Source: a virus. Taken from it: a stretch of 60,348 bases of DNA. The position numbers were made by a program, and so were the translations under genes. The stretch lies in the UHGV virus genome UHGV-0030339, one strand, 5' to 3'. The notes under the pieces were generated by a model that was given only the letters and a program-made list of their open reading frames with translations, ran no database searches and was not told the origin of the DNA. How positions within the stretch are numbered: the stretch's first letter is position 1; every line of letters starts with the position of its first letter. Below, one piece after another: positions 3,660 through 50,965 of the stretch.

Positions 3660-6600
3660 TTAAGTAAAGCTAAATCCATTTCTGCTAATCCGGCTGTTAA
3701 TAGCACTGACAAGCTCGCGCCCGTCAAGACTAATTGACGTATCCTTGTCAGCAGTTTCCCTGGTATTCTCTGCAATCTGGGACAGATATGGAGCTAAGAC
3801 ATCTGCAACAGCTTCTCTTACTCCGGCAGTAATGCCAGCTACAATCTGCTCATTATTTGCTACTGCTGTCTTGCCATTAGAGAATTGGCCAACCATTTCA
3901 TTATGATTTGCAAAAAACAGACCATCTTCTGGAAACCCACCTACAGAGTATTTCGGAATGTCAACATGAGCTATTGCTCTAAAAGATACATGTGAAATGG
4001 TATCTTCTTGCATTTCCTTTGCCGCCTCATTGTAATCGCTGATCAGGTCATTCATGGACTCTGCAATTCTGGACAATCCAGTATTGAACAAGTCAATCAT
4101 GCCATTGACTAAATCTCCAACTTCTTTCACAATGCCTTTAAATCCAGAATAGATACCATCTTTCATATTAGTGCCAAATGGTTCCCATTTTTCCTTTGTG
4201 AACCACGTAGACACGTTATTGGTAAACCAGTTGTTGATATTGATATTCCACTGAGTTTCAAACTCTGTCCATTTGTCCAGAAGCGCAGTTTTGAAATGGT
4301 CGCCCTGTTCCTTCCACTTTTCAACGGTAAACCATGTTTTTACGTTAGTATTCCACCACGTATTAGTCTTTGTTTTCCACTGAGATACAAATTCGTCCCA
4401 CTTGGCAATAAGACCTGTTTTCATTCCGTCCGTTGTAGTTTTCCATTTTTCAGTGGTAAACCATGGAGAAACATTTGCACTAAAAAATGTTGGCATTGCG
4501 GTTCCAGACCACCATACAGCAGCTTGGTTCCATGCATTCATTAACGATGTCTTAAGATTGCCAAAAATAGGATCCAGTGCCGTAGTAGTAAAACTTGACG
4601 CAAGACCGGATACAGCGGTTGTACCAATCGTGCTAAACTGCGACTCGCTAAGGGTATCAGAAATGGTATTGTACACGTCAGTAGCAAATGTGCTGATCGT
4701 ATCAATGCCGTTGCTACTCTCAAATGGCTTTATCAATCCGTCCAGCATACCTTGACCTATCTCTTTCCACTTGGACTCAGAGAATATATCATAGACATCG
4801 TTTATGGTGTCAGAAATACCATTGTGCAGTCCTTCAATAAGGTAAACACCATTCTCATCCATGACAGTAGATGGAGAATGGATACCAAGAACATCTTTAA
4901 ATTTGTCAATAACTCCTTTGGCAACATTTCCAACACTCTCTTTGATATTATTCCAACCGTCTTTGATGCCATTAATCAAGCCTTCCATGAGGTATCCACC
5001 CATTTCCGCCATGACTTTCGATGGAGAGTGGATAATAAATACTGACTGAAATGCATTCATAAATGGAGTAAAAATGTTATCAGCAACCCACTGTCCTATT
5101 GACTTTAATGCATCTACAATACCCGTAAATAAGCCTGCAACAATGTCTCCGCCAGCCGCCTGGATATAAGTGGTAAAATATGTTTTAGTCGCGTTAAATC
5201 CATTCACAAGCATATTCCATACTTGTTGTGCAAGAGCTACCACCAGCGAAGAAAGCGCACCTAAATATGTGCCTAAGTATGTGAAATACGTGGTAATTAA
5301 TCCAGTATAGTTAAATGCAGTAACAATATTGTATAAGGCATTCCAAAGATTAGTTCCAATTTGTGCCCAGTCTACAGAAGCAAGACCGGATATTACGAAG
5401 TCAAATATACCTGTGGTAATTGCATAGCCGGCATCTACCAATCTCTGTGCCAGGCCACCCCAGTCAATACCTACCAGAAAATCCATAACTCCTTCGCCAA
5501 AAGCTCCCCAATCGGTTTCGTCAACAAAGGTAATAAGTGCATCAAGTAGGCCATTAACCACAGAGTTGAGACTTGTAGCCGCACCTGCCCAACTAAATGT
5601 TGAAGCAAATGTATTAAAACTAAGCGCCAAGCTGTTTCCCAAATTCGTCCAACTAAATGTTGTCGCTGCATTTTCCAATACTGTAAACGCTGCGTTTAAC
5701 CCATTAGCGAACATTTGTCCCAGTTCATCCCATTGAACCGTATCGACAATTCCATTAAGTCCGTCACCAATGAATTTTCCAATAGAGTCCCAGTGCGTAA
5801 CATCCAGAAGAGTATTGGCAAAATCTACAGCCGTGTTAACTGCCTGTCCAATTGTTGTACCAATTGATGTAGCCAAACCTTCTGTTTCAACAAAGCCATT
5901 GATGAAGGTTCCAATACTGGATGCAATCTTTCTGGCAGACTCCTGAATGCCGTCCCACGGGATAGAGTCAAGGCCGTTCTTAAGCCACTTTCCAACAGCT
6001 GATCCAAGTTCTGTAAAATCTCCGGCGTTCCACATGGACTTGATTTTATCAGCCCATTCTTTGTACTTGCTGTCAATATCTTGTGTCTCAAACATATCAG
6101 CAGCACTAGCGCCGCCGCTACCGCCGGATCCGCTATTTTTGTTTTGGTCTACAACATTCAGTTCGTCAATTCCAAGCGTATGGGTCTTAAGATCATCAGC
6201 AGCTTTTCCAGCCTTTCCAAGGCTTTTGGCATAGTCTTGTGTCTGTTTTTTAGCTTTAATCCATGTGCCATGTCCTGTAAGTGCTGAAAACAACTGATTA
6301 ACCGCATTTGCCGCATTGATACACAGTTGGATTATCGTGTTTAAAGCCGGGGCGAGTGCATTAAGTATTGGGGCTCCTGCCGCCGCCACAGAGTTTTTCA
6401 GCTGGTTTGTAGAATTCATTAACAATGACATGCTAGCATTGGTTTCACTGCTATATTTAACCAAGTTTTGCATGCCGTCAGTAAAGGCTTTTCTAAGTTT
6501 ATTGACCAATGCAAATAAAGTTCTTACACCAATTGCATATCTCAGTATCGTTCCCAGGTTTTTCAACAATGAATTATGAGTGCCTTTACTTGCACCTGTA

Positions 6601-8142: not shown

Positions 8143-8922
8143 TTAAAAATTTCCCACATCCTGTTTGCCATCTGAATTTGTCAAGTACAATGCACACTCA
8201 TATGGATGTCCTGATCTAGGCTCAAAGTAATACCAACTATCGCCAATCTCTTGCCAGCCAGTTACCGCATATCCATCTTTGTTGAAATAATACTTATGAT
8301 GGTTGATAACTTTCCAACAATTTTTGCAATATGTTGATTTCGTATCTGCATACCACCAACCATTGCTATCATGGTTCCATCCAACAGTGTATGAATTACT
8401 TTCTGCAAGGGTCCAATCCGGTCTTCCATATCCATCAATTCTGCTGTTGTTAAGATTATACGATTTTTCGCAGACGGCACCACCATTGGCGACAACTTCT
8501 GCACCACTGCTGGTATTACCTTCAATCGTATAGACTTTCCCACCGGAAACTTTTATTACAATTCCGGTGTGGCATATTCTTGACGAATTGCGAAAAAAAA
8601 TCTGGTCTCCTGGTTTGGGATCAGATTTGTGGTATTGGCCCTTATTTTTAAAATATTGTGCAGACGTAGGAGTATAAGCGCTAAAGCCATCACACAACAA
8701 TTGTTTAGCTTTTACTGAACCAAAGGCTTGTACAAAACACCAGTCTACGAACATATCACACCACGCTTGACCTTGAAGTGACGGATAAATATCCCTGGCA
8801 TACTTTGTGTAATTATTGCTACCTGCATTGCCGGTTTTACTATCTAGAATATCATTTGACCTTTTTTCAAGATATCCAACTTCTGCTTTTGCAATTCCTA
8901 TTAATCTGTCAACTACGCTCAT
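8143..8922 (-). CDS. CHAP-domain peptidoglycan hydrolase with C-terminal cell-wall-binding repeats (endolysin or virion lysin)
   Basis: QAWCDMFVDWC (Cys) and ICHTGIV (His) catalytic motifs; C-terminal GW...WYY choline-binding-type repeats. Confidence 0.75.
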   Translation of the reverse strand: MSVVDRLIGIAKAEVGYLEKRSNDILDSKTGNAGSNNYTKYARDIYPSLQGQAWCDMFVDWCFVQAFGSVKAKQLLCDGFSAYTPTSAQYFKNKGQYHKSDPKPGDQIFFRNSSRICHTGIVIKVSGGKVYTIEGNTSSGAEVVANGGAVCEKSYNLNNSRIDGYGRPDWTLAESNSYTVGWNHDSNGWWYADTKSTYCKNCWKVINHHKYYFNKDGYAVTGWQEIGDSWYYFEPRSGHPYECALYLTNSDGKQDVGNF

Positions 8923-21068: not shown

Positions 21069-21141
21069 TCGGAACACCTGGACTTGAACCAAGGCGCATG
21101 GCTTATAAGGCCACCGCTCTAACCAACTGAGCTATGTTCCG
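21069..21141 (-). tRNA. tRNA, anticodon TAT (Ile-like)
   Basis: cloverleaf folded by hand: acceptor CGGAACA/TGTTCCG, D-arm GCTC..GAGC, anticodon loop CTTATAA, T-loop TTCAAGT. Confidence 0.7.
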
Positions 21142-21443
21142 TTTTTAAATGCGGTGCCGCTTCTCCAAACTGCATATGCCCCGTGAAAGCATTCTAGGTG
21201 ATATGCAAGCACCTGACGGCCTTGTACGTGACCGCCGAACGGATTTTAACGTCTTTACTGACCTTAACCTTATTGCGAGGAGAAGGATTCTGCTGCCTAT
21301 AACAGCCGTGTTGACGCACAGGTTGATTTTCACAAATCCCACCGGACCTTGTGACGGTCCTTTAATCAGCTTTCCGCTAGTGGGTCAGGGAGGATACCTA
21401 TATGAAAACACATACAGATATTGGGGCCCTTGCCATACCCCAG

Positions 21444-21516
21444 CTAGGCTACCGGGATTTGAACCCGGGCATTCAGGAGTCAAAGTCCTGTGTCTTTACC
21501 GCTTGACTATAGCCCA
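21444..21516 (-). tRNA. tRNA-Gln (anticodon TTG) with U1-A72 and G73
   Basis: acceptor TGGGCTA/TAGCCTA, anticodon loop CTTTGAC, T-arm CCGGG-TTCAAAT-CCCGG. Confidence 0.7.
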
Positions 21517-23871: not shown

Positions 23872-24424
23872 CTGTGAGCGTGTAGCCTCAAAGTTTGCCG
23901 TCCTTGCTCCTGCTGCCTATCCTGATCCGAGTTGTGCGCCCTTCTCACGGCTCCAGGGCAACCCTACAAGACTCAGCTATATTGTACATAAAGCATACAC
24001 CAGTTTTTTTTATCTGTCAAGCATATACACCATGTCATTTTTACAAATACCCTAGGCCCTTATATATAATATATATATTAATAATAATTATCGTTGATTA
24101 TATTAAAAATAAAATATATAAAAAAATTAATATAATAATTAAATTCGCCAAAGGGATTAAAAGAGATAAAAGGATATAGGATAATAATAGGGGGTATGGG
24201 GGAAAGAAGAAGGGAAAAGGGAAGAAGAGAAATTAAGGGGAAGGACACATTTTTACACGTATTGTCTACCTGCTGATCTGCTGACCTTGCCCGGCTGTCT
24301 GGATCCAGCCCAATTGCGATCCTCGGAGCCATGGAAAACCTAGGATTTACGCCGGTTTGCGGGATTTATGGAAGTTGCCCGGCGCCGCCTCTGGAAGTGC
24401 CCACAAAACGCCCAAATAAACGCC

Positions 24425-24580
24425 GTGAACCCCAGACGAACCAGAAAGTGAACCAACACATGAACCACCAGACGAACCAGCAAAAATCCAGTAAATACAA
24501 GGCTTCACGGGCACATGTGAACAGCGGGCGAACCAACTAACGAACCAGTAAACGGACACCCAGACGAACCAACAAGTCAC
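24425..24580 (+). repeat. array of about 8 [T/C]GAACCA repeats, five spaced 11-13 bp apart
   Basis: copies start near 24428, 24439, 24451, 24464, 24475, 24531, 24543, 24566. Confidence 0.6.
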
Positions 24581-24646
24581 AAAAAAGAGGTCTTATTCGA
24601 CCCCTTTCATGTGGGGCGGTTGCCCGTCCCGGTGGTTTAGTCTAGT

Positions 24647-25215: not shown

Positions 25216-25244
25216 TTGACTATAACTTATTTTAGTTATATAAT
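25216..25244 (+). promoter_or_regulatory. sigma-70-type promoter (TTGACT-17-TATAAT) whose spacer is the operator palindrome ATAACTTATTTTAGTTAT
   Basis: consensus hexamers with a 17-bp spacer upstream of 25292..25663. Confidence 0.65.
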
Positions 25245-25291: not shown

Positions 25292-25663
25292 ATGAGAAAA
25301 TACACCGTAGAAAACAGAAGCAAGTACACCGAGTTAATCACATTTGACGAGCTTAACAGCAAGGGCGAGAAAATCCAGCTTGAAATTATCAAATGCACAA
25401 ATCCGGGTGGAAAGCATTCCCTCCCGTACCTCTGGAAGAAAAACGGATTCGCTGACAAGATTCTTGATACCTGGTTAAGCATTGACACATACGCCACCGA
25501 GGACGGCGGAAAAGGTACTTGCTGGGGGCGCTACAATCCACAGACCAAATTATCAGAAGACGGAAGACGCCAAGTTATCAACTTTGAGTGGATGCTTGAA
25601 GCCACCGAAGAAAACCGCAAAAAACTTATAGAAGAAGTTGAGCGGTTAGCGTTTACAAAATAA
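25292..25663 (+). CDS. hypothetical protein (moron-like, higher GC)
   Basis: strong RBS aaaggaga; 123 aa. Confidence 0.55.
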   Translation: MRKYTVENRSKYTELITFDELNSKGEKIQLEIIKCTNPGGKHSLPYLWKKNGFADKILDTWLSIDTYATEDGGKGTCWGRYNPQTKLSEDGRRQVINFEWMLEATEENRKKLIEEVERLAFTK

Positions 25664-26057
25664 GCCGAAACGCCCGCCAGGGCGTCCACCGCGGGACGGT
25701 CTCCCGGTGCTGATGAGGCAGACCAGAAAGGGAAAAACATGAGTAGCGAAGATAGACACGTTTTAGAAAGCTTGGTATTTGCTTATTTTGTCGGTGAAAT
25801 GGAAATGGAGCCGATCACGGCACGCCGCAAAGTTGACAACATGACAGATGAGCAACTAGAAAGCTTTACAAAATAACCGCCGCAGGGGATGCAAGCCCGG
25901 CCCGATACCGGGCGGCGGTGTTTATCTCCCGGCTCCCAGGTTGAAAGGGAAGAAAGAAAAGCTATGTTAGATTTTATCATGGCGATATGCATATTTTTAG
26001 GTGGTTATGCGTGCCGCGTAGCTGCTGAGGATACAGAAGAATAAGGAGGTTCACACA

Positions 26058-26354
26058 ATGAGAAAATACGATTTTGACAAAATGGGCGGTTTATGGGCAG
26101 ATCAGGCCCGCGAGATTACAGAAAAGGGCGTATTTGTAGCCCATTCCGGCAATTGGGATTTATGGAGCTATTCCGGCACTGTTTATAGTATCCCGGTTAA
26201 AGGCTCCGGCTGCGGTGCTTCCGCTTGGTGTGCCCTGTCCAATCTGCGGCGGCATCTGTACCACCTGCGGAACGTCTGCGGCTATGCAGATCTAATCCCG
26301 GCATATTGGGAAGATATCAACCGGGATTTCCTGAACTCTTACGGTATTGTATAA
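26058..26354 (+). CDS. hypothetical protein
   Basis: RBS aaggagg; 98 aa. Confidence 0.5.
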   Translation: MRKYDFDKMGGLWADQAREITEKGVFVAHSGNWDLWSYSGTVYSIPVKGSGCGASAWCALSNLRRHLYHLRNVCGYADLIPAYWEDINRDFLNSYGIV

Positions 26355-26399
26355 ATATTGCCTGCTATCCGGATCCAGTCCGGCGAGGGTTCGCGACCT

Positions 26400-27300
26400 G
26401 TAGCAGGCGTTTCCTCTGTTGTACCTTGCCACGCCCGGCAAACGTGGAAACCATACCGGAACAGAGATAACAAAGCGGCTAGGATGTCAGGAAAGCGAAG
26501 GCAGCCGCAAAACTTCGCAACGATTTTATAGCAGCCCCAAGAGCATATACAGCAAATAAACGGCCTTAAAGCCGTTCCGAGAGCCGCGAGCGGTAAATAA
26601 CAGCGGCGATCCTGTGAGGGCTACCCATGCGGTAATAAGTGCATACACCAGGCGCAAGGAAAAGCGGAACCCGTGGAGGTTGGCAATAATCCATAACCAG
26701 AGATACCACGTTAAACACAAGGGCTCATATTGGACGCAGCCGAGAGCGTAAGACCCGAAAACCGCACGAGACCGGGAAAGCGGTATAAAATCGGCCCGGC
26801 ATCGTGTCAACGCCTTAAGGGACACAAACAAAGATTGAAGGCAATCAGAAAAAAAGTACTTGCTGCAGATCACCAGCAAGCCGGGCACTTGTAAACCTTT
26901 CCACCCTCTGCCGGAGTTAGGCAGCGCACAACGGGCGGCGATATAGTCCAGTATAGCGCGGGAGGTACTCCCTATAAGCCACGGGGCAGGACGTGGACGG
27001 AAGAAGGACACACTATACAAAGCAACCAGAAAACCACAGCAAAGCAGAAAGAAAGTGATAAAAATGTTTACAGCTGACATCATAAGCCAGAAAACAAGGG
27101 CGGTGTATATTGCCGCCCCGGTATCTATGATCTTGTTAATTCTTCAATATATTTGTACGGCGGGTTTTGCCTCTGCTCACACGCTTCTTTTGCTTGCGCT
27201 GCCTGTATTCAGTCTTTATGATTGTTATGTTTCCGCGCTTTTCTTCCATTCTAATCTTGACGGCCTCCGGGATATAGGCAGACGTTATAAGCCGGTGCTT
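26400..27300 (+). ncRNA. candidate large structured non-coding RNA (purine-rich, ORF-free, many local hairpins); strand uncertain
   Basis: no ORF in any + frame; the only minus ORF is a no-A compositional artefact; hairpins such as aacggccttaaagccgtt, cttgctgcagatcaccagcaag, gggaggtactccc. Confidence 0.3.
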
Positions 27301-27313
27301 GGTTCCCGATCTA

Positions 27314-28024
27314 CTACCCATTTATCCACACCCCCGCATCATTTAAAACGGTTTGTCCGCCACTGATCCGCCGGATCTGCTGCCCGTATGACTCCAGGTA
27401 GACCACCGGCGCAAGGTCCCGGGGTAAATTCTGAAGCTCAGGCCCCACAACTAGCACTTGATCTGGATGTAACCGGCGAATCATTTCCCGGTATCCAGTC
27501 TCAAAGCAGTGTTTCCCGTCATCCCAGAAGCAGCCGGTTGTACTTATTGCCACTGTTCCGCCCTGGCTCAGTCCGTCAAAACAAAAACTAAAGCTGTCTG
27601 GGCTGCCCCATCCAACCGAAGGAATCACTTCAAAACCGTTGGCATGGAGCCACCAGCTAAGCGCCCGGCTTCTGTAGACTTGCCAAACCTTCATAGCTAG
27701 CGGCATACCGTCATAAAATGAAAAATCCGGTGCGCAAACATATCTGAAATTCTCCAAAATTCCAAAATATTTCTCTGGATTATTCCATAATCGCTCAAAC
27801 CTGTGATCGTCAATAAAAAAATGGCATACAGAATTTCTGGGCTTTAGTTCTCTTTGTGCCAAATTAAAAGGCACTGCTTTAACTCCAGTCAAATCTGCGT
27901 TGACCGCCGGAAGTTTTGGAAAACCATATTTCCCGTCTAATTCTGAGCCATACAAATAGCGCTCACGTATTACATCGTTAATCGTATTGATTTCTTGATA
28001 CATTCGGTTCTCTCCTTTCGTCAA
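27314..28024 (-). CDS. hypothetical protein
   Basis: 236-aa ORF. Confidence 0.45.
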   Translation of the reverse strand: MTKGENRMYQEINTINDVIRERYLYGSELDGKYGFPKLPAVNADLTGVKAVPFNLAQRELKPRNSVCHFFIDDHRFERLWNNPEKYFGILENFRYVCAPDFSFYDGMPLAMKVWQVYRSRALSWWLHANGFEVIPSVGWGSPDSFSFCFDGLSQGGTVAISTTGCFWDDGKHCFETGYREMIRRLHPDQVLVVGPELQNLPRDLAPVVYLESYGQQIRRISGGQTVLNDAGVWING

Positions 28025-30653: not shown

Positions 30654-31469
30654 ATGCTCAAATACAAAATTGAGGATTATGTTGGTCAAAAATATGGTCA
30701 CCTAAAAGTTTTAGGAAAATCTGTCGATTCCAATATTCCTAACTGTTTCTTATTCCTGTGCGACTGCGGAAGAGAAATTTCTCTCGCTCCCGATCTAGTT
30801 ATTAAAGGTCACCAGAAATCTTGCGGAAAATGTTTGTTTTCTAACGAATCTCCATCAAGAATAAATCCAGAAGATTATATTGGAAAAAGAAACAATCTTT
30901 TAACTGTTGTTTCCACGCACAAAGAATCAAAAGGAAGAACAAAGCTCATTTGCCTATGTGATTGTGGTAAAACTACAGAAGTTTTGTCATATCAGTTCAA
31001 AAAAGGATCTATAAAAAGTTGCGGTTGCTTGCTCAAAAACAGTCCAAACTACTTGGACGGAAGAAGCACCAACGAACTTTATGGACTTTGGAAAAACATG
31101 CTTGGAAGATGTGAAAATCCAAATCACCCTAAATTTTACCGGTATGGTGCTAGAGGAATCAAAGTGTGCAATGAATGGCATAATTTTTGGAGTTTTGTTT
31201 CGTGGTCTATTTCTGTCGGAGGAAGACCAAACGGTTTTTCCTTAGACCGAATAAACAATGATAAAAATTACTGTCCAGAAAATTGCAGATGGGCTGATTC
31301 CAAAATTCAATCTACAAACAAGTCAACAAACAGAATCATTGAATATAACGGAGTTTCAAAGACTCTTCATGAATGGGCCACAGAAATCGGAATAAGCGAT
31401 CAATCTTTATCCAAACGCCTGCAAAAAAATTGGCCATCAGAAAAAGTTTTTGCTCCAAAGTCCAAATAG
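30654..31469 (+). CDS. HNH endonuclease (HNH_3/AP2-type) with duplicated Cys-rich N-terminal repeats
   Basis: FSLDRINNDKNYCPENCRWADSKIQSTNK motif; only large + strand gene in this block. Confidence 0.6.
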   Translation: MLKYKIEDYVGQKYGHLKVLGKSVDSNIPNCFLFLCDCGREISLAPDLVIKGHQKSCGKCLFSNESPSRINPEDYIGKRNNLLTVVSTHKESKGRTKLICLCDCGKTTEVLSYQFKKGSIKSCGCLLKNSPNYLDGRSTNELYGLWKNMLGRCENPNHPKFYRYGARGIKVCNEWHNFWSFVSWSISVGGRPNGFSLDRINNDKNYCPENCRWADSKIQSTNKSTNRIIEYNGVSKTLHEWATEIGISDQSLSKRLQKNWPSEKVFAPKSK

Positions 31470-32509: not shown

Positions 32510-33859
32510 TTAAAAAGTAACGAAACGAATTTCTATATCGTTTCCGCTAATAACAATTCTTTCAATACATTCTTTCAAAACTCGGTTTTTCTCCTTAACA
32601 GAAAGCGTGTCCCAAACATCCGAAACATGCTTAATCTCTTGGATTTTTTGGGTATTATCTGGTTCCTTTCTATCATTTTCAGTTAAAAGTTGTTTGTTCA
32701 GTTTTTCAATTTTCTTTTCCGTCTCCTTGATGACGTCCATCAAGTTTTTACTTGGATTATCTGCATAAAGTACATATAAACGTTTGACATGCTCATTTTC
32801 TTTTCTAATTGCTACTTTGAGCTTTGCAACCGGATCATCTTTCGGTCCACTATTCGCTTTAACATTGATAGCAAACTTTTTAAAGCAGTCTTCCACATCT
32901 GCTTCTATAATCTCTGCATATGCTTTAATGTTAGTGCAGTTTTTATCCCGAATCATGTAACTCTTGCCACTGTATTGCGAGTAGCAAATAATGCGTGGCT
33001 TTATTCCGTCCCATTTATGATATCTCATCCTAGCACCACATATTCCACAGTAACACAGTCCACTTAACAAATAACCATTTGACACATGAGCATTTGTTGA
33101 ACGCTTTTTTTGCATATCTTGAACCAAGTAAAAAGTTTCTTCGTCAATGATAGGTTCATGCTTGCCTTTATAGACATTGCCTTTGTATTCAATTAATCCA
33201 ATGTATGTTTTACGCTTAAGCGCATTTTTCACAACATTTTCACAGCTAAATCCAAGAATATTAGCAATTTTATCACATGAGTATCCTTTCAGGTAAAGTC
33301 TAAATGCATCACGAACCAGAGCTGCCTTATCAGTATTGACATGGAGTATTCCGTCATTTCTATCGTAATAATACCCAACAGGAATATTTCCACCACCAGG
33401 CCAAAGACCGTTTTTTACACGTTCAACCATTCCTGAAGACATCCTCATTCGGATGACTTCCCTCTCATACTGGTTCATTGCTGCGTTCATAGTCAGCATC
33501 ATTCTATCCATTGGATTTTCTGTCCGCAACTCTTCTGTCATGGACACAACCTTTACTCCATATCCAGGAAGTGTTTTGTAGAACAAAGTCAGTGTATCAA
33601 TAACATCACGACTCATACGATCCAATTTATAGATGTACACCGTATCTATGATTCCACTTTTTGCATGTTCAAGCAACTCCTGTATCTCCGGTCTATCAAG
33701 TTTACTTCCACTATACCCCCCGTCTATGTACCATTTGTCAATAGTAATACCATGTTTTTCACAGTAATCCATGATTTTTTGTTTCTGCATATCCAAGCCG
33801 TATTTTTCAGTCTGTGTCTCTGTTGATACTCTCAAATATGCCACTTGCAATTTGCTCAT
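32510..33859 (-). CDS. large serine recombinase (phage integrase)
   Basis: N-terminal YLRVSTETQ...DRMSRD resolvase catalytic domain plus zinc-ribbon/coiled-coil C-terminus; 449 aa. Confidence 0.85.
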   Translation of the reverse strand: MSKLQVAYLRVSTETQTEKYGLDMQKQKIMDYCEKHGITIDKWYIDGGYSGSKLDRPEIQELLEHAKSGIIDTVYIYKLDRMSRDVIDTLTLFYKTLPGYGVKVVSMTEELRTENPMDRMMLTMNAAMNQYEREVIRMRMSSGMVERVKNGLWPGGGNIPVGYYYDRNDGILHVNTDKAALVRDAFRLYLKGYSCDKIANILGFSCENVVKNALKRKTYIGLIEYKGNVYKGKHEPIIDEETFYLVQDMQKKRSTNAHVSNGYLLSGLCYCGICGARMRYHKWDGIKPRIICYSQYSGKSYMIRDKNCTNIKAYAEIIEADVEDCFKKFAINVKANSGPKDDPVAKLKVAIRKENEHVKRLYVLYADNPSKNLMDVIKETEKKIEKLNKQLLTENDRKEPDNTQKIQEIKHVSDVWDTLSVKEKNRVLKECIERIVISGNDIEIRFVTF

Positions 33860-43911: not shown

Positions 43912-44934
43912 CTACCTTTCCAATAATTCTTTTACATACAAATCCATTGAATGGCACAGCTTAATGCAATTTCCATGTAATGCATGGTTTTTCCAAGCAT
44001 TATATTTTTCGTAAAACTTCTCTTCTGGCATTTTTTCAACCTTAACCAACTCTATCCATTTACGGATGTTTTTCTTGGCTCTACGTTTGTTGCTGCCATT
44101 CAATTTCCTTATATACTTGCCGTCAGATGTTATATAATGGTGAAAACCTGTAAAAGCTATCCCACATTTAAACGGAACTATTTGTGTTTTCCCATTTAGC
44201 TCCAATTTAAGGCTTGACAGAATTTGTATTATCTGATCTAAGCACATCTTCAGATACCCTTTGTCTGGATGAATTAAATAAAAATCATCCATATATCTCC
44301 CATACCTGGAAATTTTGAGATTTTCCGTAATGATATGATCCATTTCATCTAACATCAGAAGCGCATATACCTGCGCTACCTGGTTTCCAAGGGGAAGTCC
44401 CAGACCTTCTGTACTGTCAATAAATAAATGGTTCAGCCATTTAATGTACTCATCTGGGAAATGATAATCTACAATCTGTTTGAGGATTTCGTGATCTATC
44501 TTGTAGAAAAACTTCCTGATATCACACTTAAGAATCCAACCAGATAGTCCGTATTGGCTATAAAACTCTAACATCTGCTCTTTCAGGCAATCCATTCCAT
44601 AATGAGTACCTTTACCCTCTTGCCCGGCATAATTCGTTCTGATAAAACGTTCCTTTAATACCGGATGCAAGATTTCATCGCAAAGACAATGCTGCACCAC
44701 TTTGTCTTTAAAAGAACACGATTTAATCACCCGTTCTTTAGGCTCATATATTTTAAATTCATTGTACGGGTTCATACTATATGTCTGATTTTCCAGTTGC
44801 TCTTTTAATAGGTGCAAACCTTCCAAATTCATAGTCTGGAATTTCGCACAACTTCCATTAAAACCTTTACCAGACTTAGCTTTCCTATACGCTTTATACA
44901 GGTTTTCATAACTACATATAACATCTTTATACAT
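43912..44934 (-). CDS. diversity-generating retroelement reverse transcriptase
   Basis: 340 aa; DGR-RT N-terminus (NLYKAYRKAKSGK...DKVVQHCL), LGNQVAQ (DGR variant of the QGxxxSP box), YMDD. Confidence 0.85.
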   Translation of the reverse strand: MYKDVICSYENLYKAYRKAKSGKGFNGSCAKFQTMNLEGLHLLKEQLENQTYSMNPYNEFKIYEPKERVIKSCSFKDKVVQHCLCDEILHPVLKERFIRTNYAGQEGKGTHYGMDCLKEQMLEFYSQYGLSGWILKCDIRKFFYKIDHEILKQIVDYHFPDEYIKWLNHLFIDSTEGLGLPLGNQVAQVYALLMLDEMDHIITENLKISRYGRYMDDFYLIHPDKGYLKMCLDQIIQILSSLKLELNGKTQIVPFKCGIAFTGFHHYITSDGKYIRKLNGSNKRRAKKNIRKWIELVKVEKMPEEKFYEKYNAWKNHALHGNCIKLCHSMDLYVKELLER

Positions 44935-45032
44935 TGTAAAAATTCCTTTGTATTTACCCTTCCTGGGAGGGCCATGAGCTTTTTTGTATCTTTTACTGAT
45001 TTCGGCTTAATGCCTACTCTTACCGTCTGTGT

Positions 45033-45106
45033 GATACAGAATGGACGAACACCGTTGTTGTTATTGTAATTGTTGTTGTTGATATTGCCGGAAGGCGAAA
45101 CAACGG
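45033..45106 (-). repeat. DGR template repeat (TR)
   Basis: 74 bp homologous to the VR copies; coding sense is AAC/AAT-rich (GNINNNNYNNNNGVRPF); every TR-VR mismatch sits at a TR adenine. Confidence 0.85.
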
Positions 45107-45131
45107 TTTGTACAGTTCACAGCCCAATTTC

Positions 45132-45503
45132 TTATCTTTCTCTGTCTTTCGTTCTCCAAGCAATCGCCATATGCTTAATATCGGTCACTATTTTTGACCA
45201 ATATTCCATGCTTTTCACATTGATAATATTTAACTTCATGGACAATTCAATGTAAAACAGAAGCTCATCGCAATGTGTGATTGCCTTGGTTTGCAATTCT
45301 GACCGGTCCCTGCGATATGATTTCAAATCAGTTCTGTTTGCTTCGTACAGATACTCATAAATTTCAAGAGCCTTATTCTGCATTTTATCTACAAGAGAAA
45401 ATCTATATTTCTTGGGATACCGGTTGCAATTTGAAGTCACTCGCAAGGTATGCTCCGCCAGTTCCTTTGCTTTAAGAATCACCTTTAAGTCGTTTTCTGC
45501 CAT
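45132..45503 (-). CDS. avd: DGR accessory variability determinant (Avd)
   Basis: 123-aa basic helical protein between the VR-bearing gene and TR-RT. Confidence 0.7.
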   Translation of the reverse strand: MAENDLKVILKAKELAEHTLRVTSNCNRYPKKYRFSLVDKMQNKALEIYEYLYEANRTDLKSYRRDRSELQTKAITHCDELLFYIELSMKLNIINVKSMEYWSKIVTDIKHMAIAWRTKDRER

Positions 45504-45507
45504 TTAC

Positions 45508-46122
45508 TTATTCCTCTGATTCAAAGATTGAAGAGGAAAAGATACAAAACGGACGAACACCGTTGCTGCCATAGTAACTGCAGTAGTTGACATCGCCGGA
45601 AGGCGAAACAACGGCTACTGTACTGGAATAATCATTGCAGGGTGTACTCCATGGAGTAATTAACCACCACCATTTATTTGCATTAGGAATGTACTCCCTA
45701 TATTTTCTGTACTCATCTACTGTCAGAAGAGACATTTTATCAGTGCATGATCCGTATTCTGTCTGACCATCCAGAGAAATGAGATTTCTTTCAAACTCTA
45801 ATACATTTCCTTTACCTATTTCTTCTTCCAGCTTTTCTAAAAACTCTTTGTTCAGATAGCTTCTCAGGTCACTTGTTTTCCAGTTGTTATCATCAGAGTC
45901 AAATTCTCTATTTCCAATAGATTCTGCCAGGCACATATATCCCGCATCTGTAATATCCAGAATTTTCCATGTTGTTCCAGCAAGTTGAAATTCGTCTCCG
46001 ATTGAAAGTCCAGCCGGTAGATTCTTCATGTTCTTAGAATCGTTACCTTTCAATGCATTTATTTCTTTCTTCAACTCATCGATCTGATCCTGAAGCACTT
46101 TCATTGTTAATGCCATGATCAT
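45508..46122 (-). CDS. DGR target protein 1 (DUF1566/C-type-lectin-like variable domain at C-terminus)
   Basis: C-terminal ...WWWLITPWS...VAVVSPSGDVNYCSYYGSNGVRPF; VR at its 3' end. Confidence 0.8.
   Translation of the reverse strand: MIMALTMKVLQDQIDELKKEINALKGNDSKNMKNLPAGLSIGDEFQLAGTTWKILDITDAGYMCLAESIGNREFDSDDNNWKTSDLRSYLNKEFLEKLEEEIGKGNVLEFERNLISLDGQTEYGSCTDKMSLLTVDEYRKYREYIPNANKWWWLITPWSTPCNDYSSTVAVVSPSGDVNYCSYYGSNGVRPFCIFSSSIFESEE
45541..45614 (-). repeat. DGR variable repeat VR1
   Basis: flanks ggacgaacaccgtt / gccggaaggcgaaacaacgg identical to TR; internal differences only at TR adenines. Confidence 0.85.
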
Positions 46123-46718
46123 TCTCCCTTCGATACAAAGATATGAGATTTCAAGATACAGAACGGACGAACACCGTGGAAGTTAATGCAACCGCTGTTG
46201 CTGACATTGCCGGAAGGCGAAACAACGGCTACTGAGTACTCCCAACCGCGTTCTTTGGTGCTCCATGGGGTGCATGTCCACCCCCAGTCATTCAGATTCT
46301 TATTGACAAGCAGGTCATTAAATTCCCTTGCCTCATCAAAGGTAATTGGCCTTACTTTGCATACACAGTCTTCATATTCATGCTGCATATCTACCGATGC
46401 CAAGTTTACAGTATGCTCAATCAGATTTTCTGCGCCTACAGCATTTTCAATGATCGGCTGAATATCCGATTCAATCAGTTTTTTAAGTTTGGACTTATTG
46501 TAATCTGTTGATCTTTTGTCAAATTCAACATTCTCGGCCATAAAGCCCTTTGAAATAACTGCCGCATAATTAGGTGCCTGCATAAGCACGATAAAATCAT
46601 GCTCACCAACTTTAAATACTTCCCCTGGCTTCAGTTCTGACAGCCTCGCTTCGTTCTTTTTCTCTGCTTCTTCTAATCGCTTTACTAACTCTCTTGCCAT
46701 GTCTAAGGCTTTGCTCAT
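46119..46718 (-). CDS. DGR target protein 2 (paralog of target 1)
   Basis: C-terminal ...CTPWS...VAVVSPSGNVSNSGCINFHGVRPF; ATGA overlap with target 1. Confidence 0.8.
   Translation of the reverse strand: MSKALDMARELVKRLEEAEKKNEARLSELKPGEVFKVGEHDFIVLMQAPNYAAVISKGFMAENVEFDKRSTDYNKSKLKKLIESDIQPIIENAVGAENLIEHTVNLASVDMQHEYEDCVCKVRPITFDEAREFNDLLVNKNLNDWGWTCTPWSTKERGWEYSVAVVSPSGNVSNSGCINFHGVRPFCILKSHIFVSKGE
46155..46228 (-). repeat. DGR variable repeat VR2
   Basis: same conserved flanks; adenine-specific substitutions relative to TR. Confidence 0.85.
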
Positions 46719-50200: not shown

Positions 50201-50965
50201 TTACCTTTTCTCCGCTTCTTCCTCTACATTGACTTCCCGCACACTTCCGACAAACTTATTGACAAAGTAAATCTGACCTTTGCCTGTGACTTTTGTTGTC
50301 CGGGTTATTCGTACTGATCCGTCTGGGTTCTGTACATTGCTTTCTTTGACCTCAAACAACCCTTGTTCTACATACCTTTGCATTGGCATGTTTTTTGAGC
50401 TTCCGCCCTTTACCAAGTACCCATTTTCTCGCAGCCACTCAAATAATCTTTTCTGCCCTATCTGGTATCCGTTTTGGCAAATCAGCTTTGCCAAGTCACC
50501 AACAAGAATTGATGTGTGACTTGCGCTTACCGCATCCGCAAAAATTGTCTTAGGTTTATCGGCTTCAATTTTCTGCTCCAGAAGTCGGTTATTATGCTTT
50601 AGATCTTCAATCTGCCGGTCTGCGATTTTCAAGGCTCTTGCCATAACCTGTTCAGGCGTGTTCCAGGCTTTTTCCAAATCAATGAGATATTCTCGTATCT
50701 GCTTGCCTTTTTCAGTTCTCGACATAAGCGATAAATGTTTGGCCATTAATACTGAAATTTGATAATCTTCAAGCTCTCTTGTTGCACCATTGTTTACAAC
50801 CGTACTCGATGTACACTTGTGATAATCTTCGTTCTCTACAAATAATTCCTTATTTGTATCAAACCACCTACTAAATCTTGAAACGATACCCAATGCACTA
50901 TGCAGTTCTCTAGCGGACACTGTTTGCGTGTCAAAATTTACGTTCAATAACTCATTCATTTCCAT
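50201..50965 (-). CDS. phage antirepressor (Rha-like N-terminus, KilA-C/ANT C-terminus)
   Basis: VSARELHSALGI.SRFSRWF and ...LAKLICQNGYQIGQKRLFEWLRENGYL. Confidence 0.65.
   Translation of the reverse strand: MEMNELLNVNFDTQTVSARELHSALGIVSRFSRWFDTNKELFVENEDYHKCTSSTVVNNGATRELEDYQISVLMAKHLSLMSRTEKGKQIREYLIDLEKAWNTPEQVMARALKIADRQIEDLKHNNRLLEQKIEADKPKTIFADAVSASHTSILVGDLAKLICQNGYQIGQKRLFEWLRENGYLVKGGSSKNMPMQRYVEQGLFEVKESNVQNPDGSVRITRTTKVTGKGQIYFVNKFVGSVREVNVEEEAEKR

Follow-up and report, generated by a model that had tools for sequence, protein, structure and literature searches.

The CI RNA of phage P4 and the c4 RNA of phages P1/P7 are leader-derived immunity RNAs of 70–80 nucleotides (nt), which pair with repeated targets in the same leader; this untranslated early-operon leader lies beside the immunity region, and the RNAs vary between related phages. 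Among RNA antiterminators, put of phage HK022 and EAR of Bacillus are smaller than conAn2 of the pLS20-type conjugative elements. conAn2 is a poorly conserved, cis-acting non-coding antiterminator RNA of 260–600 nt, located downstream of the conAn1 gene, close to the beginning of a long terminator-containing operon with a strong repressor-controlled promoter on a Gram-positive mobile element, and built as a 20-bp inverted repeat, essential in pLS20, around a centre of ~238 bp (PMC8191782). The GOLLD and ROOL families of large ornate phage RNAs are prophage-associated (PMC12286853, PMC5737381). Here we describe an element of the virus genome UHGV-0030339, of which a stretch of 60,348 nt was analyzed (the window, on which all coordinates are given). 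The element is a T-poor region on the + strand, 26355–27097, with an optional cassette at 26611–26970, and the first ~240 nt of this cassette probably constitute a genuine conserved structured RNA element of an undescribed family.

The cassette was found in three lineages, namely the window, the 2.9-kb Logan contig L004, and the L-family (IMG/VR and human-gut contigs). The locus resembles the P4/P1/P7 RNAs in placing RNA domains in an untranslated early-operon leader; it differs in that internal complementary target repeats were not found here, and we know of no sequence relation between the cassette and those immunity RNAs. As in the case of conAn2, the cassettes of L004 and the L-family are promoter-proximal. 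Unlike conAn2, the cassette is not flanked by a 20-bp repeat (the longest inverted repeat in 26300–27200 has 15 nt with 80 % complementarity), and a ConAn1-like neighbour was not identified, with no ConAn1 reference sequence compared. Further differences are that the RNA lies at the operon 3′ end in the window, that the operon of the L-family contig L013 has no terminator excess, and that BLAST of the region against 72,556 plasmids (PLSDB) gave no match and the 98-amino-acid (98-aa) protein encoded next to it no plasmid homologue in the same database. Uridine depletion is not mentioned for conAn2 in the available part of its description (PMC8191782).

The conserved domain and its relatives

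The region, the cassette, and the parts of the domain that recur in other lineages are as follows.

26355–27097, + strand: T-poor (15 % T), A-rich non-coding region without an open reading frame (ORF), from composition, frame, and hairpin counts
26611–26970, + strand: optional 360-nt cassette, absent from the related phage sequence L003
26611–26672, + strand: conserved 5′ module CCUGUGAGGGCUACC..GGUAAUAAGUGCAUACACCAGGCGCAAGGAAAAGCG, found in 53 IMG/VR loci and twice in L004
26672–26710, + strand: helix Px, CGUGG (26672–26676) with CCACG (26706–26710), enclosing a small hairpin, from compensatory changes
26761–26806, + strand: 46-nt core aCCGCACGAGACCGGGAAAGCGGUAUAAAAUCGGCCCGGCAUCGUG, from cross-lineage identity
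26804–26825, + strand: hairpin P3, GUGUC/GACAC, with the pairing kept through sequence change
26826–26836, + strand: conserved single-stranded tail A(n)ACAnnGAUU after P3 in all lineages, from sequence comparison

L004, which was reached through the sole protein-level match, has a TTGACT-17-TATACT promoter followed by ~1 kb of T-poor untranslated sequence before its first ORF. It shares with the window the 5′ module (present twice) and an identical 46-nt stretch corresponding to 26761–26806, and it keeps the 5′ module, the Px stem, the core, and the P3 hairpin. A scan with the core retrieved 8 IMG/VR and 8 human-gut metagenome contigs, some of them 250–300 kb long, and in all 16 contigs the core was located in a T-poor untranslated leader between an operator-flanked promoter (TTGACT-17-TACAAT) and the first ORF. 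This L-family promoter carries operator-like palindromes and is divergent from a small helix-turn-helix (HTH) repressor gene. The pattern of the leader 3′ end was found in 67 IMG/VR stretches, giving 75 loci when the metagenome contigs and L004 were included; the leaders could be delimited in 69 of the 75 and measured 306–965 nt with 10–18 % T. The core was present in about 56 of the 75 leader loci, and the two shortest leaders (L063 and L032) were devoid of the cassette. Since the cassette is missing from L003 as well as from L063/L032, two unrelated T-poor backbones each occur with and without it.

The orientation of the cassette follows from the promoters of L004 and the L-family, and the sense strand is thus the + strand. 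Transcription from the repressor-controlled promoter reaches the cassette first in more than 60 loci. The segment 26611–26847 (238 nt to GAUU) is collinear with the L-family cassette (235–237 nt) and shows ~70 % identity over 227 nt. The first ORFs after the L-family leaders had no PHROG match, and no protein common to this phage and the L-family or L004 pointed to a shared RNA-binding partner.

The L-family leaders (L006–L084, e.g. L026, 2250–3200; L013, 4680–5900) share a conserved backbone. Its 5′ part of ~190 nt contains ACGAACCG repeats and twin CCGGACCAAGG motifs, and its 3′ part of ~110 nt ends in CCUCCGGGG..CUCCUAUUAUAACAGGCUUUCCCGGA, with a possible hairpin around the sole U-rich patch before the ribosome-binding site. 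Several middle cassettes are exchanged from contig to contig and display apparent compensatory variants, for example CGUGCCGG/CCGGUGCG versus CGCUCCGG/CCGGGGCG. A small terminase-like gene lies beyond the repressor gene, and FtsK-like and integrase genes lie downstream.

In the domain itself, the segments CCUGUG (26611–26616) and CGCACG (26763–26768), both invariant, could pair with each other as a closing pair. Helix Px reads UGUGC/GCACA in the L-family and CGCG/CGCG in L004, in the same register after a conserved AAACC; when checked by hand over the three lineages, three of its five positions were changed on both sides. The hairpin inside Px differs in sequence and is paired in both lineages. 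P3 is replaced in other lineages by GGGAG/CUCCC, UGGAG/CUCCA, or GAGUG/CACUC. As far as sequence comparison can tell, the pairing of Px and P3 has thus been kept through sequence change around a core conserved in all three lineages, and the domain corresponds to no Rfam family.

The core was 100 % identical between the window and L004 and 98 % identical in L013 (one mismatch in 47 nt). In the major L-family type, a C>U change gives a U·G pair in P2 and a U>C change turns a G·U pair into G-C in P2a, so that the pairing is preserved; P2 and P2a showed G·U/G-C changes only. The nested fold, consisting of P1 (26765–69/26802–06), P2 (26772–76/26795–99), and P2a (26781–84/26790–93), appeared in every minimum free energy (MFE) prediction. 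On sequence grounds, folding of the core as an H-type pseudoknot, CCGC/GCGG with CCGGG/CCCGG, would be equally possible. The 5′ arm of P3 and the 3′ arm of P1 overlap by 3 nt (26804–26806), an arrangement that hints at two alternative conformations.

A covariance model of the core and P3 was built from a seed of window and L-family sequences, with L004 and L013 left out. The model recovered L004 at 65 bits and L013 at 62 bits, with one copy per locus, and found no second core copy in the window, L001–L003, L032, L063, or L085. In the model alignment 98 % of the cells were paired, and 5 pairs were changed on both sides compared with 1.7±1.0 in shuffles. When the whole cassette was folded, RNAalifold and single-sequence MFE predictions were inconsistent outside the core hairpin and Px, and no consensus fold was obtained.

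Composition, modular build, and known RNA families

The base composition of 26355–27095 on the + strand was 32.9 % A, 25.5 % C, 26.2 % G, and 15.4 % T, as compared with 33.7 % T in the + strand of the whole window. Only 3 of 5961 segments of 741 nt were equally T-poor on the + strand, and none on the − strand. The first-pass annotation had described the region as purine-rich and T-poor; the T-poverty was evident, whereas A+G amounts to 59 % and 'A-rich, T-poor' is the more accurate wording. The same annotation had taken the + strand to be free of ORFs and rich in local hairpins, and both statements were borne out. All three + frames of 26355–27097 are broken by 5–18 stops of mixed type (TAA/TAG/TGA), and since the stops are mixed, recoding cannot rescue an ORF on this strand. 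Perfect 5-bp hairpins numbered 16 (6.6±3.1 in dinucleotide shuffles, p≈0.002), hairpins with 4-bp stems 44 (27±6 in dinucleotide shuffles), and C-GNRA-G motifs 7 (2.6 in shuffles, p≈0.01). An R-loop or G-rich origin and a Rho rut site were rejected, as G ≈ C in the main region and the GC skew is near 0.

The remaining features of the region and its border are listed below.

26360–26422, + strand: long hairpin of GCCUGCUA (26360–26367) with UAGCAGGC (26401–26408) around CCGGA/UCCGG, followed by the U-rich GUUUCCUCUGUUGU, from sequence and MFE
26474–26525, + strand: interleaved GCGGCU/AGCCGC and GCGAAG/CUUCGC in the backbone, from sequence
26848–26970, + strand: cassette 3′ part, specific to the window, carrying hairpins at 26859–26881, 26908–26924, and 26960–26972, from sequence comparison
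26971–27097, + strand: 3′ backbone, present in L003, with hairpin CCACG (26979–83)/CGUGG (26992–96) and then an A/C-rich tail of low pairing
26526–27083, − strand: open frame of 185 aa, judged a non-gene from frame, homology, and substitution tests
27085–27119, − strand: terminator of the convergent minus-strand operon, GGGGCGGC..CCGCCC and then UUGUUUUCU, from sequence and MFE

The optional nature of the cassette was evident from L003 (IMG/VR 3300045988_060590), which is ~95 % identical to the window on both sides and lacks exactly 26611–26970; the junction is ambiguous by 3 nt owing to a CCT microhomology. The backbone, 26355–26610 and 26971–27097, is specific to the lineage, and no relatives were detectable for either backbone segment or for 26848–26970. 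Thus, of the structured non-coding RNA of 650–900 nt suggested at first, the non-coding character and a conserved structured RNA domain stood up, whereas a single conserved architecture of that length did not: only 26611–26847 (~240 nt) is conserved elsewhere. The long-range pair proposed between cccgtgg (26670–26676) and ccacggg (26979–26985) fared no better. Both sequences exist, yet the covarying local helix Px competes with it, and the 3′ partner belongs to a local hairpin of its own and is not part of the optional cassette. In the 5′ backbone, the hairpin at 26360–26422, in which the L003 change at 26361 (C>U) retains a G·U pair, may be a leaky terminator of the operon encoding the 98-aa protein or a 5′ structure of the RNA, and the interleaved segments at 26474–26525 are a possible H-type pseudoknot.

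The region begins at the stop codon (26352–26354) of the 98-aa + strand ORF 26058–26354 and ends at the convergent terminator hairpin 27098–27119, which also closes the + strand region. The convergent minus-strand operon comprises a 61-aa ORF (27136–27321) and the gene for a DUF4417 protein (27314–28024), and a counterpart of its terminator hairpin ends the operon in the related phage L087 too. The island containing the region is counter-oriented, has its own near-consensus promoter (25216–25244, TTGACT-17-TATAAT, 11/12 matches), and is bounded by terminator-like structures at both ends, in agreement with the earlier placement at the 3′ end of a moron operon. In the same island, the stop codon of ORF 25292–25663 marks the start of a type II hammerhead ribozyme (25663–25727, + strand, 61 bits). 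Dulem virus 39 (terminase 79 % identical) has the same island ending at a terminator after a small ORF, without the T-poor region, and in L087 (DUF4417 protein 90 % identical) another small gene replaces both the 98-aa ORF and the T-poor region; the islands of both are counter-oriented beside a Cro/CI-type HTH gene, as in the window. Since these two relatives lack the region, it is accessory cargo in a variable slot.

The related phages Dulem virus 39 and L087 also have hammerheads between the small genes of their equivalent islands. Copies were located in L085 at 6155–6222 (−) and 8364–8428 (+) and in L087 at 5721–5785 (−), and a further L085 copy around 6704–6640 was spotted by eye only. Transcripts of the island are probably cleaved into pieces. 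In L002 (4790–5460), a homologue of the 98-aa ORF with 54 % identity is followed at the island end by a terminator-like hairpin, an apparent 3′ half of a tRNA (GGTTCGATCCCGGCGGCGGGT, att-like), and ~500 nt of unrelated sequence that is A/C-rich and T-poor and in which GACCGACCGCAGA motifs recur.

The minus-strand frame 26526–27083 was examined for coding potential. The 199-codon open run that holds it was matched by 13 of 2000 dinucleotide shuffles (0.65 %), and the homologous open run in L004 is likewise longer than in shuffles (1.4 %). The first-pass annotation had called the ORF an artefact of the A-poor template. The frame failed every coding test, but the open run exceeds the expectation from composition and a pure artefact of A-poverty is therefore too simple an account; clustering of the few T residues of the + strand is a likely explanation. 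The frame had no match in Pfam or PHROG, and its only matches among 5.8 billion clustered proteins were itself and the same frame over the homologous L004 DNA. The first-pass annotation had named a conserved protein, detectable by tblastn, as a refuting result; the outcome for a protein was negative. There is no Shine-Dalgarno sequence before the ORF, and its start follows directly after the minus-strand terminator. Seven substitutions separate it from L003 (~95 % identical); five of them are non-synonymous, and the first ATG is lost through one. In the L-family, the consensus of the homologous frame carries stops, 38 distinct substitutions are spread 14/13/11 over the codon positions (10 synonymous, 28 not), and natural 1-nt insertion and deletion variants occur.

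Antisense strands of U-poor RNAs were thus seen to stay open for 180–200 codons, above the shuffle expectation (window 26526–27083, −; L004 695–1240), and gene callers deposit such runs as hypothetical proteins (P0001, P0002). They are a likely source of spurious protein families.

Searches with Rfam 15 of the whole window returned two tRNAs and the type II hammerhead, with no match at the gathering score in 26355–27097, and no match at E ≤ 10 was found for 26000–27500 (1.5 kb) or 26600–26980 (381 nt). In the related loci nothing was found in the element, the matches being tRNAs and hammerheads elsewhere only. The covariance models of GOLLD (RF01998) and ROOL (RF03087) were without a match in all these searches, that of ROOL in the related loci also, and HEARO/IscB ωRNA (RF02033) was rejected as well, with no Rfam match and with the family-less 98-aa ORF and the DUF4417 protein as neighbours. 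The absence of an Rfam match therefore leaves GOLLD, ROOL, HEARO, group I/II introns, and riboswitches unsupported, and the GOLLD/ROOL/HEARO membership considered in the first-pass annotation was not upheld at either threshold (381-nt query for E ≤ 10). The two tRNA genes, tRNA-Ile (TAT) at 21069–21141 and tRNA-Gln (TTG) at 21443–21516, both on the − strand, lie between a MazG-like gene and the packaging genes.

BLAST of the region against 50,697 phage records gave no match. The exact core had 0 matches in the GTDB species genomes, and a stem-degenerate core had 3, unsupported by the covariance model (L024 17 bits; L023 and L025 none). The motif GGTAATAAGTGSATACACC yielded one chance match in a coding region (L014) and was discarded. 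The literature offered general analogues only, and no described equivalent was found.

Folded as a pseudoknot, the 46-nt core would have the order stem 1, ACGAG loop, stem 2, short loop, stem 1′, A-rich loop, and stem 2′ in ~40 nt, and would then recall the H-type pseudoknot of guanidine-III (ykkC-III, RF01763), in which ACGAG is likewise part of the first loop. It differs from guanidine-III in having no Rfam match at E ≤ 10 (381-nt query), in its third loop, and in a context other than a transporter or carboxylase gene, and the nested hairpin fits the data as well.

Weighing of the explanations

The observations that carry the argument are that the region is non-coding, that its composition is extreme, and that the cassette is optional in two unrelated backbones. 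Together with the conserved core and the maintained pairing of Px and P3, they make a genuine conserved structured RNA element of an undescribed family the explanation that we consider rather probable. Its domain would run from the 5′ module through helix Px, the 46-nt core (as hairpin or pseudoknot), and hairpin P3 to the ACA..GAUU tail, and in the window the RNA would be the tail end of a small moron-like, counter-oriented island next to the Cro/CI-type HTH gene. U-depletion would spare the sense RNA intrinsic terminators and A-U/G-U mispairing, and the depleted RNA may fold as G-C hairpins with A-rich linkers between them. The cassette could be a domain that is carried on a transcript and serves in folding or in recognition, its counterpart being a protein, a small ligand, or the machinery of transcription or decay. 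It might thereby tune the fate of the carrier RNA (elongation, processing, or stability) or be released as a stable RNA.

A cis role appears somewhat more likely than a trans role. The leader cassettes are transcribed first from a repressor-controlled promoter, a classical site of fate-deciding cis elements. A cis-regulatory mechanism alone is nevertheless doubtful, and in the window a cis effect would be limited to stability, processing, or read-through of the convergent terminator. The most elaborate version is somewhat more doubtful still: an undescribed phage and mobile-element class of uridine-depleted 'scaffold' RNAs (0.3–1 kb, 10–18 % U, G-C hairpins with A-rich linkers), whose structured cassettes would be swapped by recombination between unrelated elements. 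The cassette would here be a sensor or recognition domain, in which the core would bind a ligand or protein and a switch of the mutually exclusive P1 and P3 would govern entry into the lytic programme or its outcome in the leaders, or act in trans in the window moron. Antitermination is not supported by the terminator counts in L013.

Several observations weigh against a conserved RNA element. The core is invariant and shows no covariation for its own fold, which the nested hairpin and the pseudoknot fit equally. The covariation support is thin because the independent lineages number only three and copies within the L-family hardly differ, and the pairs were counted in an alignment (Infernal) that was fitted to the structure and includes one chance match; RNAalifold on a sequence-based MAFFT alignment breaks many L-family pairs in the window. 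Folding energy gives weak z-scores for the global MFE, with −2.0 over the entire region, −0.7 in the cassette, and −0.4 in the 5′ backbone. A near-identical phage is without the cassette, and the region as a whole is missing from closer relatives. In the window the cassette is located at the operon 3′ end, with nothing downstream on the + strand to regulate, and since it occupies the 5′ leader elsewhere, one cis mechanism fits both situations poorly. Finally, sense-strand terminators are not in excess in the early operon of L013.

The possibility exists that the region instead gives rise to a trans-acting moron RNA, which would be transcribed in lysogens or soon after infection, freed by processing, and act as a decoy or sponge for a factor of the host or of a competitor, for instance in anti-defence or superinfection control. 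We regard this as doubtful. The hypervariable, counter-oriented island with its own promoter (25216–25244) and flanking terminators would suit such an RNA, as would the different cargo of the slot in relatives, the optional cassette, and the Hammerhead_II upstream in the same operon, and the invariant 46-nt core suggests recognition by a defined partner. Against it, no partner was identified, and more than 60 other copies are located in 5′ leaders, the classical cis location. GGA motifs are not enriched in the region, and a CsrA-type GGA sponge was rejected on this ground.

Alternatively, the region could be a compositional spacer without a specific RNA function, a one-way insulator that would halt read-through from the convergent minus-strand operon before it enters the island and the regulatory region, with the cassette as a recombination remnant. 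Where a G-C hairpin precedes an A-run on the + strand, the − strand presents a hairpin-plus-U-tract terminator, the terminator-like sites are all minus-strand (26881–26858, 26577–26558, and the hairpin 27119–27098), and the L026 leader shows the same antisense one-sidedness. The global folding energy is unexceptional and the region dispensable in relatives, as expected of a spacer. However, the terminator-like counts are within the shuffle expectation, and the L-family leaders face no convergent operon. A spacer would also leave unexplained the near-identical 46-nt core amid flanks diverged to 70 % or beyond recognition, as well as the compensatory changes in Px and P3, and we consider it improbable.

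It is very unlikely that the 360-nt cassette is a mobile element or a self-splicing intron inserted in an RNA gene. Its clean presence or absence with a 3-nt CCT repeat at the flanks, the occurrence of the same cassette type in unrelated backbones, and the start GUGAG, similar to the 5′ end of group II introns, which run GUGYG...AY, could be read in this way, but the CCT repeat is equally explained by microhomology deletion, and the cassettes of different lineages have unrelated 3′ parts, favouring module recombination over transposition. There are no terminal inverted repeats, and neither a transposase nor a reverse transcriptase is encoded. Introns of groups I and II were rejected: Rfam gave no match to either, the terminal G that marks the 3′ end of a group I intron, with U as the last base of the 5′ exon, is missing from all four possible boundaries, no domain V/VI features such as a domain V-like hairpin were found, and 360 nt is too short for a group II intron.

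Even less probable is that the region is a member or distant relative of the GOLLD and ROOL RNAs, which form multimeric RNA cages. The likeness lies in the phage or prophage site, the length of several hundred nt, and the many short hairpins with GNRA-like loops. Besides the missing Rfam match at the gathering score or E ≤ 10, the conserved part comprises ~240 nt only, the remainder being a mosaic, and the closest tRNA genes are 5 kb off, whereas GOLLD and ROOL are stand-alone genes beside tRNAs; the element here is modular with an optional cassette within longer transcripts (leader or 3′ tail). One architecture over a stand-alone RNA of 500–800 nt was rejected as a kind, with homologues found only for 26611–26847 and the cassette being optional.

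Least credible is a real 185-aa hydrophobic, Cys/Leu/Phe-rich protein from 26526–27083, for although the open run exceeds the shuffles here and in L004, the 360-nt indel relative to L003 is divisible by three, and gene callers deposited the ORF (P0001), the frame has no relative other than the same frame over conserved DNA, no ribosome-binding site, mostly non-synonymous changes with the first ATG hit, L-family stops and 1-nt indels without third-position bias, and a strand antisense to the promoter-driven leader in more than 60 loci.

Phage context and meaning of the element

Nearly all genes of this temperate phage lie on the − strand. Another counter-oriented insert is the HNH endonuclease gene at 30654–31469 (+). 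A large serine integrase is encoded at 32510–33859 (−) and an Ant-type anti-repressor at 50201–50965 (−). A diversity-generating retroelement occupies 43912–46718 (−), with its reverse transcriptase at 43912–44934 (phrog_1423, E 5e-101), a template repeat at ~45033–45106, and variable repeats at 45541–45614 and 46155–46228 in ORFs 45508–46122 and 46119–46718, respectively; the mismatches in the aligned core fall on adenines of the AAC-rich template. A link between the region and this retroelement was rejected, as the reverse transcriptase is 17 kb off, the template and variable repeats lie at 45.0–46.2 kb, and the region is unrepeated in the window. The tape-measure gene contains a 209-nt direct repeat of 72 % identity (6964–7172/7612–7820), and a 92-nt inverted repeat of 75 % identity lies around 54 kb (53877–53968/54583–54492).

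A second T-poor stretch on the + strand, 24330–24595 (9.5–14.5 % T), contains GAACCA motifs at multiples of 12 nt, and Tandem Repeats Finder (TRF) detected a period of 12 at 24449–24479 within it. It adjoins a very AT-rich segment (24030–24150), a purine-rich one (24150–24260), and a minus-strand terminator (~24606–24580). A 69-aa + strand ORF (24331–24540) overlaps the motifs and would read the repeats as 4-aa units. The L-family leaders open with ACGAACC repeats, which are similar to the GAACCA motifs. A further U-poor RNA, an array of protein-binding sites, or a region resembling an origin would each be a possible reading of this stretch.

Were the region a spacer, it would be of minor interest. 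If the element is a conserved RNA, it would represent a family absent from Rfam 15 and common in prophage-like elements of the human gut, with at least 75 leader loci. It would be unusual in its extreme uridine depletion over hundreds of nt, its modular build with an optional cassette, and its near-identical core amid diverged surroundings. The natural pairs with and without the cassette, the window versus L003 and L026 versus L063, are usable as experimental comparisons. To our knowledge, very little is known about lysis-lysogeny or early-gene control in gut Firmicutes phages, and the position of the cassette behind repressor-controlled promoters suggests that an RNA layer may take part in this control.

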